IMG/VR virus record: IMGVR_UViG_2660237951_000003
Coordinates: 1-5,866 of that record
DNA length: 5,866 nucleotides
Strand: one strand, 5' to 3'
Source of the DNA: a virus
Taxonomy: Duplodnaviria > Heunggongvirae > Uroviricota > Caudoviricetes
Position numbers and translations under genes: made by a program. The notes beneath the pieces are model-generated. The model had not been told where the DNA came from, searched no databases, and saw only the letters and a program-made list of their open reading frames with translations. This document shows, in pieces, positions 1,971 through 5,848 of the stretch (position 1 is its first letter; every line of letters starts with the position of its first letter).

Positions 1971-2141
1971 ATGCAACAGTTCGCTATTGCAGGGGCGGCA
2001 TCGGTTCGCCCTTTCAACCCGATTTTATCGGTACAGCATTCACGAAAAAATATTTTAACCGGAGCAGACTTTAAACAACCAAGAATGAAAAGTTTGCTCG
2101 AAAAGCTTTGGGATATTTTGAAACAACAAGGCCGTCCATGA
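1971..2141 (+). CDS. cIII-like small protein (56 aa)
   Basis: ATG 1971 with AGAAGGAG (1957-1964) at 6-nt spacing. The longer TTG-start ORF from 1866 would span a terminator hairpin and is rejected. N-terminus MQQFAIAGA and C-terminal SLLEKLWDILKQQGRP resemble lambda cIII (MQYAIAGW...SLLERITRKL...LIDILNQPGVP, from memory). Position before the recombination genes matches lambda. Confidence 0.45.
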   Translation: MQQFAIAGAASVRPFNPILSVQHSRKNILTGADFKQPRMKSLLEKLWDILKQQGRP

Positions 2142-2296
2142 GTTTTACGGATAACTGGTCAGACGAAGAATTCATTCGTCAGATGAAAGAATTAATCGGT
2201 AACGAAGGAGATATTCATGTCACTTGCAACCACAGTGAAGGAGAGCAAGTTACAGAGACGCATGTACACGCAGAAAGCTCTCTGGTATCGCCATAA
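2138..2296 (+). CDS. Hypothetical small acidic protein (52 aa), translationally coupled to the cIII-like gene
   Basis: ATG 2138 overlaps the TGA of the upstream gene (ATGA). About 11 acidic against 2 basic residues. It occupies the position kil holds in lambda, but no sequence identification is possible. Confidence 0.45.
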   Translation: MSFTDNWSDEEFIRQMKELIGNEGDIHVTCNHSEGEQVTETHVHAESSLVSP

Positions 2297-2395
2297 TGGT
2301 GACCGCGAAGGAATGCGGGTATGCCTTAATTTGTCCCGAGTCGAAGTATTAAACCAGCGTTATTTCCTTGGGCCATGTCCATTCTGAGGTGAATT

Positions 2396-3103
2396 ATGGA
2401 TTTGAATAAATTCGATGAGCCATTCAGCCCTGAAGATATCGAATGGCGAATACAGCAAAGCGGTAAAACACGCGATGGCAAAGTGTGGGCTATGGTGCTG
2501 GCTTATGTCACGAACCGGGCAATCATGAAACGCCTGGACGATGTTTGCGGCAAAGCAGGATGGCGCAATGAATACCGCGATATTCCCAACAACGGCGGCG
2601 TTGAATGCGGCATATCAATAAAGATTGATTCCGAATGGGTAACCAAATGGGATGCTGCTGAAAACACGCAGGTAGAAGCCGTCAAAGGTGGTCGTTCCGG
2701 TGCAATGAAGCGCGCTGCCGTTCAGTGGGGAATCGGTCGGTATCTGTATAACCTTGAGGAAGGTTTCGCACAAACATCTCTCGATAAAAAGCAGGGGTGG
2801 TACAGGGCAAAACTGAAGGATGGAACAGGATTTTACTGGCTCCCTCCATCGCTTCCGGGGTGGGCAATCCCAGCATCAGATAACAAACCATCACCAGAAA
2901 ATACCAACCAGAAATCTCCATCGGTTGACTGCGAACAAATCCTGAAAGACTTCAGCGATTATGCATCAACAGAAACTGACAAGAAAAAACTCATCGAGCG
3001 TTATCAGCGTGACTGGCAATTAATGGCTGGCAACGAGGAGGCGCAGGCTAAATGCGTTCAGGTAATGAACATCAGAGTTAACGAACTAAAACAGGCGGCA
3101 TAA
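2396..3103 (+). CDS. Rad52-like (Rad52/22 / Sak family) single-strand annealing protein with a distinct C-terminal domain
   Basis: ATG 2396 with GAGGTGA (2386-2392). The core motif EAVKGGRSGAMKRAAVQWGIGRYLYN matches the Rad52-family signature (EAV...KRA...G.G..LY), with GKAGWRNEY upstream. A Pro/Ser-rich linker (PPSLPGWAIPASDNKPSPENTNQKSPS) precedes a charged C-terminal domain of about 70 aa. The stop abuts the SSB start (TAAATG). Confidence 0.7.
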   Translation: MDLNKFDEPFSPEDIEWRIQQSGKTRDGKVWAMVLAYVTNRAIMKRLDDVCGKAGWRNEYRDIPNNGGVECGISIKIDSEWVTKWDAAENTQVEAVKGGRSGAMKRAAVQWGIGRYLYNLEEGFAQTSLDKKQGWYRAKLKDGTGFYWLPPSLPGWAIPASDNKPSPENTNQKSPSVDCEQILKDFSDYASTETDKKKLIERYQRDWQLMAGNEEAQAKCVQVMNIRVNELKQAA

Positions 3104-3610
3104 ATGGCAAGCAGAGGCGTAAATAAGGTGATTATCCTTGGTCGGGTAGGACAAGACCCGGAAGTTCGATACTCACCATCAGGAACAGCGTTCGCTAACC
3201 TGACAATAGCCACGTCAGAACAATGGCGAGATAAAAATACTGGCGAGCAAAAGGAATTGACTGAATGGCATCGTGTTGCTGTATCCGGGAAACTGGCTGA
3301 GGTCGTGGGGCAGTATGTGAAAAAAGGTGATCAGATTTATTTCGAGGGAATGCTGAGAACCAGAAAGTGGAAAGACCAGTCAGGGCAAGACCGTTACACA
3401 ACCGAGGTTCATGTCGGAATTAATGGTGTGATGCAAATGCTTGGCGGCATTGGCGACAGCAAACAACAAGCAGCCAGCAGGCAATCACAGAAGCCACAGC
3501 AGCAATCATCACCAGCACAACACAACGAACCTCCGATGGATTTTGACGACGATATACCCTTTGCACCAGTAACTCTCCCCTTCCCTCGTCACGCTATTCA
3601 CGCAATTTAA
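3104..3610 (+). CDS. ssb: Single-stranded DNA-binding protein (SSB), phage-encoded, with a 15-residue extension after the DDDIPF motif
   Basis: N-terminal OB fold is close to E. coli SSB ([18 protein letters not shown]...EWHRV...GQDRYTTEV). Short Gln-rich linker, then [11 protein letters not shown] followed by [15 protein letters not shown] before the TAA at 3608-3610. Confidence 0.9.
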
Positions 3611-3623
3611 TCAGGAGAAAATC

Positions 3624-3920
3624 ATGCCAGCGCCTCAGTATGGTGCGGATGACCCGCGCCGCTGTTCCGGCAATTCCGTATCGGAGGTGCTGGATAAATT
3701 CAGGAAAAACTACGACCAGATAATGTCTCTACCGCAGGAAACGAAAGATGAAAAGGAATTTCGCCATTGTATATGGCTTGCAGAGAAAGAAGAACGCGAG
3801 CGAATTTACCAGACATCAATCCGACCATTCCGCAAAGCCACATATACCCACTTCCCTGAATATATCGACCAGCGCCTGCGTAATTACCGCTCACGCTATG
3901 GCGCTATCAGTAATGACTGA
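3624..3920 (+). CDS. Hypothetical protein (98 aa)
   Basis: ATG 3624 with AGGAG (3613-3617) at 6-nt spacing. Charged and helical in its C-terminal half. No recognised family. Confidence 0.6.
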
Positions 3921-3930
3921 GGAATTTACC

Positions 3931-4098
3931 ATGAGAGGACTTGCATACAATCCCGGCATTCTTCCGGCAGAAATGATTATTCGCCAACGCGTAAGGCCAA
4001 TGCCATCGAGAGAGGAATTGCTTAAGAGAAATAGTTTCGGTTCTGTTAACGACAACAAATATCTGAATGCGATGTGGCGCAAAGGAGGCAACCAGTGA
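3931..4098 (+). CDS. Hypothetical small protein (55 aa); alternative start ATG 3913
   Basis: ATG 3931 preceded by GAGGAA (3919-3924). The in-frame ATG at 3913 has no Shine-Dalgarno sequence. The stop overlaps the next gene's GTG (GTGA). Confidence 0.45.
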
Positions 4099-4349
4099 GT
4101 AATTCAGCACGACTACAGCTTGGTTTTTCACCGCTATCAAAAACTATCATGCTGGCAAAAATGCGCGATGTTGAAGGTGGACGTATGCGCGTTGGCAATG
4201 ATCCAGGTCGTGATGTTACCAATGAGGCTGCTCAATTGGTGTGGCGACTGGTCATGGCTGAAGGTGGTGAGATCGCGTGGGAGCTGGATGATGGTTCTCG
4301 CATGGTGTTGAAGGCAGAAAAGCAGGAGGCAACCAGTGAGCAAGATTGA
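4095..4349 (+). CDS. Hypothetical protein (85 aa, GTG start)
   Basis: GTG 4095 with AAGGAGG (4082-4088) at 6-nt spacing. The ORF-track start at 4074 is also GTG but has no Shine-Dalgarno sequence. No recognised family. Confidence 0.5.
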
Positions 4350-4713
4350 CTATCAGGCACTGCGTGAAATCGCAGCGGCAGCAGTTGGCGCACATGAGCG
4401 CCTTAGTGTTATGCCGCCTGATGACATTTTCGATATCTCACTGGCAGAAGGAACTCAGCTTGATGCAGATATCACTGCCTTGAACGCGCTGAACTCCGCA
4501 GCCAGTCCAGCTACCGTGCTGGCGCTACTGGATGAACTGGAAGCCGCAGAGAAGCGAATCGCTGAACTGGAAGCGAAGCTCGATAGCGCAGATAAATTGC
4601 AAGATAGCGCATTTCGTCATGGTCTTCAGCATGGCTTCAGTTTAGGTCAAACGGATAATCAGGCTGGATTTGAAGAGTGCTTATCTGCCTATGGCACCGG
4701 TAAAGGAGAGTGA
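4336..4713 (+). CDS. Ea22-like (ead/Ea22-family) coiled-coil protein (125 aa, GTG start)
   Basis: GTG 4336 with AGGAGG (4324-4329). N-terminal [13 protein letters not shown] and the heptad-like LALLDELEAAEKRIAELEAKL segment resemble prophage Ea22-like proteins as I remember them. It lies downstream of the recombination genes, as ea22 does in lambda. Confidence 0.45.
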   Translation: MSKIDYQALREIAAAAVGAHERLSVMPPDDIFDISLAEGTQLDADITALNALNSAASPATVLALLDELEAAEKRIAELEAKLDSADKLQDSAFRHGLQHGFSLGQTDNQAGFEECLSAYGTGKGE

Positions 4714-4715
4714 AT

Positions 4716-4988
4716 GTGAAAAATTATCTCAGCAATTTAGCCAGCATGCTTCAGGGGATTGCAGGTGTCATTTCAGACGGCGAGCGGGTGCAGAAAGAGT
4801 GCCCTGCGCACTTAAAGTCAGCACTACTCGAGGCTTCTCACGCGCTAGATGGTCAATCGGTCAGGGTCAATTATCCGCCTAATGGAAAGCCTGAAATTGT
4901 TAATGCCCGCGGACACCATCGACCGCTTACCTTCCGGGAACGAGTGGCAATCCGCTTACTTGGTGGCAGGACGGAGATTCGCCCATGA
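4716..4988 (+). CDS. Hypothetical protein (about 90 aa; start GTG 4716, alternative GTG 4710)
   Basis: AAAGGAGAG (4701-4709) precedes GTG 4716 at good spacing. The stop overlaps the next ATG (ATGA at 4985-4988). Confidence 0.5.
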   Translation: MKNYLSNLASMLQGIAGVISDGERVQKECPAHLKSALLEASHALDGQSVRVNYPPNGKPEIVNARGHHRPLTFRERVAIRLLGGRTEIRP

Positions 4989-5791
4989 GCACTATTACCA
5001 AAGAACTGGCAAAGCTGTTCAGAAAAATTACGAATTCTGAAATTGATGCGGAGGGAAACGCTCATGTTGTTTTATCTCCTGCTGATAGCCTCCTGATTAA
5101 TAATGCGCGTATCGCGCTGGCATCGCTCGAAGCGGAGCCTGTGGCGTGGGCGCACAGATTAATCAACAAGCGTAACGGAGTCGTTCACCCTTGGGTTTAC
5201 GGTAGCGCAGAGGCGTGTCCAAGCGAGGGGGATATCTTCAATATTGAGGTAATGCCGCTCTACACCGTCCCTCCAGCGCCGGTATCTGTGCCCGCTGCGA
5301 TGGAAATGGATGATGACTTTGACAGCGCGTTTGAACACGGAAAAGCTGTCGGCTGGAACGCCTATCGCGCCGCCATGCTTCAGGCCGATGGTACCCTCAC
5401 CAATGAAGGTACCATGCAGTTGTCCGGTAATTCCGAACAAATCGAACCCGTAAGTAATCGTGATGAGTTGCCGTTGGACTATCTGCAAGGTCACAAAGAC
5501 GGCCTTGAATGGGCGGCGCAACTGGCAGAGGCCAATCATCCGCAAACAGGTGACTGGTTATACGACGACCCAATCGATCTTGCCAGGGCGATTCGCAAAG
5601 GTCCGGATATGCCTACTGTTCAGGCTGGCAACTCTCCGGTAACTCCGGATGGTTGGGTTATGGTGCCGAAGGAGCCAACTCAGGCCATGATTAAAGCGTG
5701 GCTATCAGAGATTGCTAACTTTCGCGGTCATGCTGCTGGTTACAGGGCTGCTCTTGAGGCAGCACCGCAGCAGGAGGTTAACCGTGGCTAA
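4985..5791 (+). CDS. Hypothetical prophage protein (268 aa), possibly a modular Ea22-region protein
   Basis: ATG 4985 coupled to the upstream gene. Contains an acidic patch (AAMEMDDDFDSAFEHG) and a C-terminal segment DGWVMVPKEPTQAMIKAWLSEIANFRGHAAGYRAALEAA. No confident family assignment. Confidence 0.6.
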   Translation: MSTITKELAKLFRKITNSEIDAEGNAHVVLSPADSLLINNARIALASLEAEPVAWAHRLINKRNGVVHPWVYGSAEACPSEGDIFNIEVMPLYTVPPAPVSVPAAMEMDDDFDSAFEHGKAVGWNAYRAAMLQADGTLTNEGTMQLSGNSEQIEPVSNRDELPLDYLQGHKDGLEWAAQLAEANHPQTGDWLYDDPIDLARAIRKGPDMPTVQAGNSPVTPDGWVMVPKEPTQAMIKAWLSEIANFRGHAAGYRAALEAAPQQEVNRG

Positions 5792-5823
5792 CCTGCAACT
5801 TGCCGTCAAAGGTGAATAACAAT

Positions 5824-5848
5824 CCTCGCACTCGCGGGGATTTCTTTT
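5824..5848 (+). terminator. Terminator-like hairpin after the last gene
   Basis: Stem CCTCGC (5824-5829) / GCGGGG (5834-5839) with one G-U pair, loop ACTC, then ATTTCTTTT. Confidence 0.4.

Follow-up and report, generated by a model that had tools for sequence, protein, structure and literature searches.

Organization of the locus

The window analysed here is the whole 5,866-nucleotide stretch of IMG/VR record IMGVR_UViG_2660237951_000003, to which all coordinates below refer. The part under study, positions 3624 to 4988, carries five small genes of a lambdoid phage that an initial annotation had taken for a variable cluster of unassigned genes, lying between a single-stranded DNA-binding protein (SSB) gene and a gene for a 268-residue protein. 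The five open reading frames (ORFs) are consecutive, as had been stated, and all lie on the plus strand. ORF1 (3624-3920, ATG start, 98 amino acids) is Abc2, the last gene of the recombination module; ORF2 (3931-4098, ATG, 55 amino acids) is a DUF2737 protein; ORF3 (4095-4349, GTG, 84 amino acids rather than the 85 first given) belongs to DUF7446; ORF4 (4336-4713, GTG, 125 amino acids) encodes a short, chimeric Ead/Ea22-like coiled-coil protein; and ORF5 (4716-4988, GTG, 90 amino acids) encodes a phrog_14964 protein. Shine-Dalgarno (SD)-like motifs stand 5-8 nucleotides (nt) upstream of each start (AGGAG, GAGGA, AGGAGG, AGGAGG and AAGGAG, from ORF1 to ORF5), and the choice of starts is consistent with the N-termini and lengths of homologues. 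The junctions from ORF1 to ORF5 measure +10, -4, -14 and +2 nt, and that between ORF5 and the 268-residue gene -4 nt; the overlaps that had been described for the cluster are thus found at three of these five junctions.

The stretch is essentially 100% coding. Against distinct alleles in related loci, the ratio of non-synonymous to synonymous polymorphism (pN/pS) is 0.33 for ORF1, 0.37 for ORF2, 0.14 for ORF3, 0.26 for ORF4 and 0.13 for ORF5, the differences among ORF5 alleles comprising 1184 synonymous and 471 non-synonymous changes. Since pN/pS lies between 0.13 and 0.37 in all five, the coding signal is far above chance; all five reading frames are under purifying selection and the five genes are real. 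An Rfam scan returned no family at an expect value (E) of 1 or below, a tRNA search returned none, and a signal scan found no convincing promoter or terminator inside the studied stretch. Two weak terminator-like hairpins fall within ORF4, and the window as a whole holds 10 such hairpins against 5.5 +/- 2.5 in shuffled sequences, which is within the range of chance. On these results, hidden RNA genes and internal transcription signals were rejected.

Family searches name far more of these genes than the 125-residue ORF4, which alone had been held to be recognisable. ORF1 matches PF11043 (P22 anti-RecBCD protein 2) at 199.3 bits (cutoff 25, E = 9e-60, residues 1-98 to model positions 1-97 of 97) and phrog_656, 'abc2 anti-RecBCD', in a PHROG search. 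ORF2 matches PF10930 (DUF2737) at 103 bits (cutoff 25, E = 7e-30, residues 1-51 to positions 1-51 of 53) and phrog_1117 (E = 3e-37), and ORF3 matches PF24233 (DUF7446) at 67.1 bits (cutoff 24.1, E = 1.3e-18, residues 7-79 to positions 2-70 of 70) and phrog_1578 (E = 9e-34). The match of ORF4 to PF13935 (Ead_Ea22) scores 75.6 bits (cutoff 27, E = 7e-21) and aligns residues 2-89 with positions 1-100 only of a 139-position model, and ORF5 matches phrog_14964 from end to end (E = 6.4e-63, positions 1-90 of 90). NCBIfam gave no match for any of the five. Among the PADLOC-DB defence profiles there was none for ORF1, ORF2, ORF3 or ORF5, and for ORF4 only a marginal coiled-coil match to PbeC (E = 0.003).

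Synteny with HK75, HK97, Sf6, mEp213 and an E. coli prophage places the stretch in the early-left (pL) operon, after the recombination genes and before xis/int, where the initial annotation had also put it. The order in HK75 is cIII-kil-gp33-Erf-like-SSB-Abc2-DUF2737-...-xis-int, and the same order in the E. coli prophage terminates at xis/int next to ybhC. We consider it very probable that positions 3624-4988 are the distal part of an N-antiterminated pL operon in a lambdoid prophage of the HK75/HK97/Sf6/P22 kind, in which case the stretch would be co-transcribed from pL.

Abc2 and DUF2737

ORF1 had been counted among the unassigned genes, and here Pfam, PHROG and the PDB agree in assigning it to Abc2. 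It aligns end to end with chain A of PDB entries 8B1T/8B1U, the P22 Abc2 protein, at E = 3.4e-54 with 86 of 98 columns identical (~88%), and is 93% identical to HK75 gp30. The action of P22 Abc2 on RecBCD has been characterised, and its Pro68 engages PpiB (PMC9836394); this proline is kept in ORF1, in the motif IRPFRK. ORF1 adjoins the genes for an annealing protein (2396-3103) and SSB (3104-3610) in the same order as in HK75. A survey of lambdoid Rec modules describes the HK75 type as an anti-RecBCD protein, an SSB and an annealing protein with no nuclease (PMC12315714), and since this is the combination found here, ORF1 belongs to the recombination module and not to an unassigned cluster. 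By homology, therefore, ORF1 is the structurally characterised RecBCD modulator Abc2, the last gene of an HK75-type module, and this allele would be expected to bind RecC and to alter the response to Chi. As in HK75, it follows a Rad52-like annealing protein and an SSB, with a gp33-like gene upstream. The module differs from that of P22 in two respects, in that abc1 and arf are not in this window and the annealing protein is of the Rad52/22 type found in Sf6 and HK75, whereas that of P22 is Erf.

The variability of the five genes was surveyed in IMG/VR loci anchored on each of four genes, taking the best 80 matches per scan and locating all window proteins in each of the 330 loci obtained; of the Abc2-anchored loci, those extending at least 2.5 kb downstream were counted (n = 66). 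DUF2737 is present in 65 of these 66: in 37 it is the next gene after Abc2, in 18 a single inserted gene intervenes, and in 10 its N-terminus is variant. Reciprocally, Abc2 lies upstream in 72 of 79 DUF2737-anchored loci. ORF1 and ORF2 are thus a near-constant pair and not variable. ORF2 is a basic protein (isoelectric point (pI) 10.9) with homologues in HK97 gp38, HK75 gp29 and Sf6 gp23, and the matches listed for DUF2737 come essentially from Escherichia, Shigella and Salmonella. One passing mention of DUF2737 was found in the literature searched. The tight linkage of DUF2737 to Abc2 suggests a shared function.

The DUF7446, Ead-like and phrog_14964 genes

The three genes that follow behave differently in the same loci, DUF7446 occurring in 4 of the 66 Abc2-anchored loci and full-length ORF4 and ORF5 in none. 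These counts support the description of the region as a variable hotspot for ORF3 to ORF5 and contradict it for ORF1 and ORF2; the comparison across related loci that the initial annotation had named as a check thus separates the five genes into two kinds.

ORF3 is a sporadic, strongly conserved cassette. In the DUF7446-anchored loci (n = 73), the gene just upstream is DUF2737 in 30, and an Ead-type start comes next downstream in 21. Mean column identity of DUF7446 is 82% over seven genera (Escherichia, Salmonella, Citrobacter, Enterobacter, Klebsiella, Raoultella and Hafnia), and its carriers include lambdoid and P22-like phages, ~108-kb phage genomes, and phages of Klebsiella, Yersinia, Proteus and Aeromonas, the phage records differing widely in host and in size (46-95 kb). 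DUF7446 was also observed in a non-lambdoid chromosomal island of Salmonella enterica (L163-L167), together with an integrase, a TraF_2-like protein and a run of small genes, and one variant of this island (L167) has two DUF7446 copies. The AlphaFold2 (AF2) model of ORF3, built on a shallow alignment whose members are all at least 79% identical to ORF3, has a mean predicted local distance difference test score (pLDDT) of 50.8; it was judged unusable and a structure-based search was dropped. No mention of DUF7446 was found in the literature searched.

ORF4 is a chimera. After a conserved Ead 5' end comes an N-terminal segment that varies, and this leads into a heptad coiled coil (LLDELEAAEKRIAELEAKL) and then a C-terminal part of ~60 residues. 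In close relatives of the locus (ORF5-anchored, at least 93% identity, n = 36) this C-terminal part (~residues 62-125) adjoins ORF5 in 25 and the N-terminal part varies; the last 40-60 residues match other PHROGs (1138 and 32305). Searched against every PDB chain sequence, ORF4 matched only designed coiled coils, at E of 0.4 or above, and nothing related to the C-terminal domain of lambda Ea22. Lambda Ea22 has a three-domain build with a dimeric mixed alpha-beta C-terminal domain, an organization that was not found in the 125 residues of ORF4. Several related phages and prophages carry a pair of Ead/Ea22-like genes in a tandem or near-tandem arrangement, among them mEp213 (L003, positions 2373-3454) and an E. 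coli prophage (L168, positions 4472-5996), and in the latter a 90-residue 'hypothetical' gene lies between the two Ead-like genes.

ORF5 is a basic protein (pI 10.0) with no family in Pfam or NCBIfam, and the 48 members of phrog_14964 have no informative Pfam match. Among 1.84 billion proteins the family is small, with 62 clusters at 90% identity and 105 representatives at 50%; almost all are standalone proteins of ~80-110 residues, and the C-terminus is strongly conserved (NARG..R..T.RER.A...LGG.TEIRP). Domain fusions in the families of these genes gave no functional clue, the longer proteins having as second domain just DUF7167 or being evident products of read-through, as with N36 fused to DUF2737. 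The AF2 model of ORF5 (pLDDT 78) found no informative structural neighbour in a fold search; ORF5 and DUF7446 family profiles run against PDB sequences gave nothing below E = 0.07, and single-sequence searches nothing useful. Relatives at 42-47% identity occur in Pbunavirus, in Stenotrophomonas phages and in jumbo phages of Xanthomonas and Erwinia, where they sit among small genes nearly all annotated as hypothetical; because of this range, the role of ORF5 is not specific to lysogeny. ORF5 normally stands between an Ead-like gene and a relative of the 268-residue protein. The N-terminus of such a relative is adjacent to ORF5 in 30 of the same 36 loci. Clustering of the flanking ORFs placed 62 upstream neighbours together as an Ead-like group, and 58 downstream neighbours likewise share one cluster, related to the 268-residue protein. 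The ATG of the 268-residue gene overlaps the stop codon of ORF5 (ATGA), an arrangement that would couple the translation of the two genes. An identification of ORF5 as P22 EaC, by its position between Ead and an EaA-like gene, was considered and rejected: P22-type eaC has at least 193 codons (PMC8022706), and in phage records the gene matching ORF5 is called hypothetical or is mislabelled EaA.

Mosaicism and nearest relatives

Taken singly, all five genes have counterparts of 96-100% identity in sequenced phages or viral contigs. Abc2 and DUF2737 are nearest to HK544 and mEp506 (96-97%) and to IMG/VR viral contigs (98-100%), DUF7446 to PDP110P1/P2 and vB_EcoP-683R2, ORF4 to IMG/VR loci (97%; ~80% to mEp213), and ORF5 to mEp213, mEp043, Louie and Dewey. 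All five genes occur together in 0 of the 330 loci, none of 50,697 phage records covers at least 80% of the stretch by megablast, and such coverage was found in 3 of 5,426 complete E. coli genomes, where the match is split into at least two pieces and no DUF7446 is annotated. Only the combination of genes is new, as is expected for lambdoid phages.

The distribution of nucleotide similarity (at least 88% identity) is consistent with the gene counts. Between 64 and 80 of the 80 Abc2-anchored loci cover positions 3650-4050 and 4 of 80 cover 4150-4300; with ORF5 as anchor, coverage rises from 6 of 46 loci at 4400 to 26 of 46 at 4550-4650 and 41-45 of 46 at 4700-5000. Breakpoints are concentrated at 3600-3640, 4060-4120, 4320-4360, 4480-4560 (in the coiled-coil region of Ead), 4680-4700 and 5000-5020. 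The part rightward of ~4100 is highly mosaic. An 18-nt inverted repeat (3607-3624 / 5083-5100) was considered as a mobile-element boundary; its arms are 83% complementary and lie off the breakpoints, and it was treated as a chance occurrence.

Junction sequences and the proposed exchange of cassettes

Two kinds of short conserved sequence occur at the junctions. The first is a linker, GGAGGCAACCAGTGAG, of which the window has two plus-strand copies: AGGAGGCAACCAGTGAGTAA at 4083-4102, containing the SD motif and GTG start of ORF3 and the TGA stop of ORF2, and AGGAGGCAACCAGTGAGCAA at 4324-4343, containing the SD motif and GTG start of ORF4. Together they form a 20-nt direct repeat around ORF3, 95% identical and 241 nt apart from start to start. 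The 16-mer core of the linker occurs in 46 of 167 loci, on the plus strand only, and at the junctions inspected it joins differing upstream genes (DUF2737, HK97 gp37-like and others) to differing downstream genes (Ead, DUF7446 and others). The arrangement in mEp213 is DUF2737-linker-Ead and that in this window DUF2737-linker-DUF7446-linker-Ead. No description of the linker was found in the literature searched.

The second is the conserved 5' end of the Ead-type genes, GTGAGCAAGATTGACTATCAGGCACTGCGTGA, at 4336-4367 on the plus strand, the equivalent of Sf6 bsq3. Positions 4337-4366 are identical to TGAGCAAGATTGACTATCAGGCACTGCGTG, which is annotated as 'bsq3; boundary sequence' in the Sf6 record. 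In many loci this 5' end precedes divergent sequence, and the megablast matches to phages break at ~4324-4375, with that to PDP110P2 ending at 4367 and those to mEp213 and mEp043 starting at 4324. The resemblance to boundary sequences of the Sf6/HK620 type is thus twofold, in that the 5' end of ORF4 is bsq3 and that similarity breaks both there and at the linker. The differences are that ORF4 starts with GTG whereas the Sf6 gene starts with ATG, and that here a second, shorter linker of 16-20 nt brackets a single gene, DUF7446. The linker may simply be part of the known boundary-sequence phenomenon.

We propose that phages exchange the cassettes through homologous recombination at these short conserved sequences. 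One junction would be the SD/start/stop linker AGGAGGCAACCAGTGAG, present as the direct repeat around ORF3, where recombination between copies would insert or remove the DUF7446 cassette cleanly; the other would be the conserved 32-nt 5' end of the Ead-type genes; and further exchanges may take place inside the Ead coiled-coil region. Rad52-like phage recombinases have been shown to generate mosaics from homology that is short and diverged (PMC3945230), and the phage's own Rad52-like recombinase, encoded 1.2 kb upstream, probably catalyses these exchanges.

Interpretation and alternatives

In sum, the stretch is in all likelihood composed of a conserved pair, ORF1-ORF2, and of exchangeable cassettes, ORF3-ORF5, in a lambdoid early-left operon. 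Such a region is of an already known kind, the dispensable and mosaic early-left arm of lambdoid phages. All lambda pL-operon genes other than N are dispensable for plaque formation (PMC10695390), most early-left genes of P22-like phages are without known function (PMC8022706), and the genes described here would by analogy be dispensable as well. The region shares with lambda exo-xis and the P22 'ea' region its position in the pL operon, its small packed genes and its one coiled-coil gene of the Ead/Ea22 family. It differs from lambda in having none of orf60a, orf61, orf63 and ea8.5, and from both in that ORF4 is shorter than Ea22 with no detectable lambda-type C-terminal domain; DUF2737, DUF7446 and phrog_14964 are without a studied counterpart.

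Several points weigh against this reading. The loci surveyed, being the best matches of each scan, are biased to close relatives. The junctions at which recombination is proposed measure 16-32 nt, at the low end of the homology for which it has been shown experimentally, and conservation of the linker could instead reflect selection for translational coupling, although both may be true. DUF2737 is also found 3' of a RecT-type module that lacks Abc2 (L095), so the link between DUF2737 and Abc2 may be positional and not functional.

Beyond the arrangement itself, we regard as less likely than not the idea that DUF7446 or ORF5 is a host-directed effector or that DUF2737 is a cofactor in the hijacking of RecBCD by Abc2. 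The first part of this idea, which the initial annotation had raised, is compatible with a conserved pair followed by exchangeable cassettes, and adds to it the functional claim that DUF7446, ORF5 or both act in counter-defence, takeover or exclusion on a conserved host or defence target. It is plausible, and on balance somewhat improbable. The ~82% conservation per column of DUF7446 across seven genera, its presence, at times duplicated, in very different mobile elements, and the reach of ORF5 relatives to Pbunavirus, Stenotrophomonas phages and Xanthomonas/Erwinia jumbo phages are what an effector of this kind would show; wide occurrence and high conservation are equally compatible with many other roles. 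A systematic screen of 200 phage accessory genes (Silas et al., bioRxiv 2023 / Nat Commun 2025) used Abc2 as a control gene and lists Abc2 and DUF2737 neighbourhoods in its gene-neighbourhood tables, a likeness between its accessory regions and this one, and in it the neighbouring gene of P22, abc1, triggers a P4-encoded abortive-infection locus. The supplementary text of that work that was searched contained no peptide strings of ORF2, ORF3, ORF4 or ORF5. Against an effector function, neither protein resembles any characterised anti-defence protein or matches PADLOC, and the DUF7446 model could not be used.

A narrower proposal concerns DUF2737, which could be a working part of the recombination and anti-RecBCD module, for example as a cofactor of Abc2 that replaces P22 Abc1 or Arf. 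P22 reaches full recombination activity only with Abc1 and Arf, two proteins of unknown role (PMC9836394), and abc1 is not in this window; the co-occurrence of DUF2737 and Abc2 is near-obligate in both directions, the taxonomic range of DUF2737 is narrow, and the protein is small and basic. These features would suit a cofactor. However, the RecT-type module noted above carries DUF2737 without Abc2, an unrelated gene splits the two in 18 of 66 loci, the survey of Rec modules does not count DUF2737 as a member (PMC12315714), and the HK75 Rec locus was cloned as Gp33-Erf-Gp31-Abc2 without it (10.64898/2026.07.10.737580). The linkage may just reflect that no recombination junctions lie between the two genes, and we regard the cofactor role as unlikely.

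Equally doubtful is a role of ORF4, and possibly of its neighbours, in tuning the lysis-lysogeny decision in the manner of the lambda exo-xis genes. ORF4 lies well above the Ead_Ea22 threshold and at the equivalent genome position, and Ea22 is pro-lysogenic in both lambda and Phi24B despite divergent C-termini (PMC7093339; PMC10834534). The C-terminal domain of lambda Ea22 has been proposed to present a ligand loop (PMC10834534), and because ORF4 has no relative of that domain among PDB sequences, transfer of the pro-lysogenic role is weak. The brevity of ORF4, its alignment to the first 100 of 139 model positions and its PDB matches to designed coiled coils alone all count against such a role, the more so as the Ead family is defined mostly by an N-terminal segment and a coiled coil, and the two tandem Ead paralogues of mEp213 argue against a single fixed role.

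That some of the small ORFs are chance frames or decayed, non-coding remnants of a defective prophage might be suggested by their shortness, by the GTG starts of three of them and by a frameshifted copy of ORF3 in a related locus (L040), and is very improbable, indeed already refuted as far as sequence evidence reaches, given low pN/pS with many synonymous changes in all five, homologues that are full-length and conserved in length in many genera, an SD motif at every start, and profile matches that span the full length.

Other features of the window

The remainder of the window fits an early-left operon. The N gene lies at 630-1013. The gp33-like gene (2108-2296, plus strand, 62 amino acids; the likely true start is an ATG at 2138) stands 5' of the gene for the annealing protein, which at 2396-3103 is of the Sf6/HK75 Rad52/22 type, and its product is small, acidic and 92% identical to HK75 gp33. 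HK75 Gp33 alone is reported to trigger the toxicity of P2 OLD and has been proposed as a new inhibitor or manipulator of RecBCD (2026 preprint, 10.64898/2026.07.10.737580). As the gp33-like gene is also present, the window holds the whole HK75-type locus of gp33, annealing protein, SSB and Abc2. The SSB gene (3104-3610, plus strand), third in this module and syntenic with HK75 gp31, matches Pfam SSB at E = 1.6e-36 and phrog_44.

Downstream of ORF5, the 268-residue protein gene (4985-5791, plus strand) is itself mosaic: its first ~55 nt travel together with ORF5, and locus coverage steps down at ~5040, ~5150 and ~5400. The two ends of the protein match different PHROGs, 660 and 5117 in the N-terminal part and 60 and 12449 in the C-terminal part. 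It has no Pfam match; some phage records label proteins of this kind EaA, and RefSeq labels relatives in the same region DUF551-domain proteins. A terminator-like hairpin 3' of this gene (5821-5842, plus strand), with a 9-pair stem and a T-rich tail, is a candidate by consensus match only.

Two observations concern the left part of the window. An acidic 147-residue ORF (pI 4.4) at 1303-1746 on the plus strand, of GC content 0.40-0.44 and with terminator-like hairpins on either side (1238-1267 and 1735-1754), has no match in Pfam, PHROG, NCBIfam or PADLOC and was located in just 2 of the 330 loci, L095 and L307. Lying between N and the cIII region, it has the look of a moron-type insertion and is more orphan-like than any of the five ORFs. 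Positions 1-300 are AT-rich (GC 0.36) with a strong terminator-like hairpin at 37-56, and presumably separate N from the immunity genes or pL.

Implications

The principal consequence of these results is a correction, in that what had appeared to be five unknown genes are a known anti-RecBCD gene and members of catalogued families. The separation of a conserved pair from exchangeable cassettes makes DUF2737 the best candidate for a still-missing part of the Abc2 recombination system, and DUF7446 between its direct repeats is a clear example of how a gene may be gained or lost without disturbing the translation of its neighbours. Phage loci that target RecBCD are of current interest as triggers of the retron, Gabija and OLD defences, and for that reason the neighbours of Abc2 are worth including in defence-trigger assays. 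DUF7446 and phrog_14964, being small, strongly constrained and widely travelled, are reasonable entries for screens of counter-defence and triggering. If either proves to be an effector, its target would be one conserved across Enterobacterales for DUF7446 or across Gammaproteobacteria for ORF5, and this would explain the travel of such cassettes among temperate, virulent, jumbo and ~108-kb phages and integrative islands.

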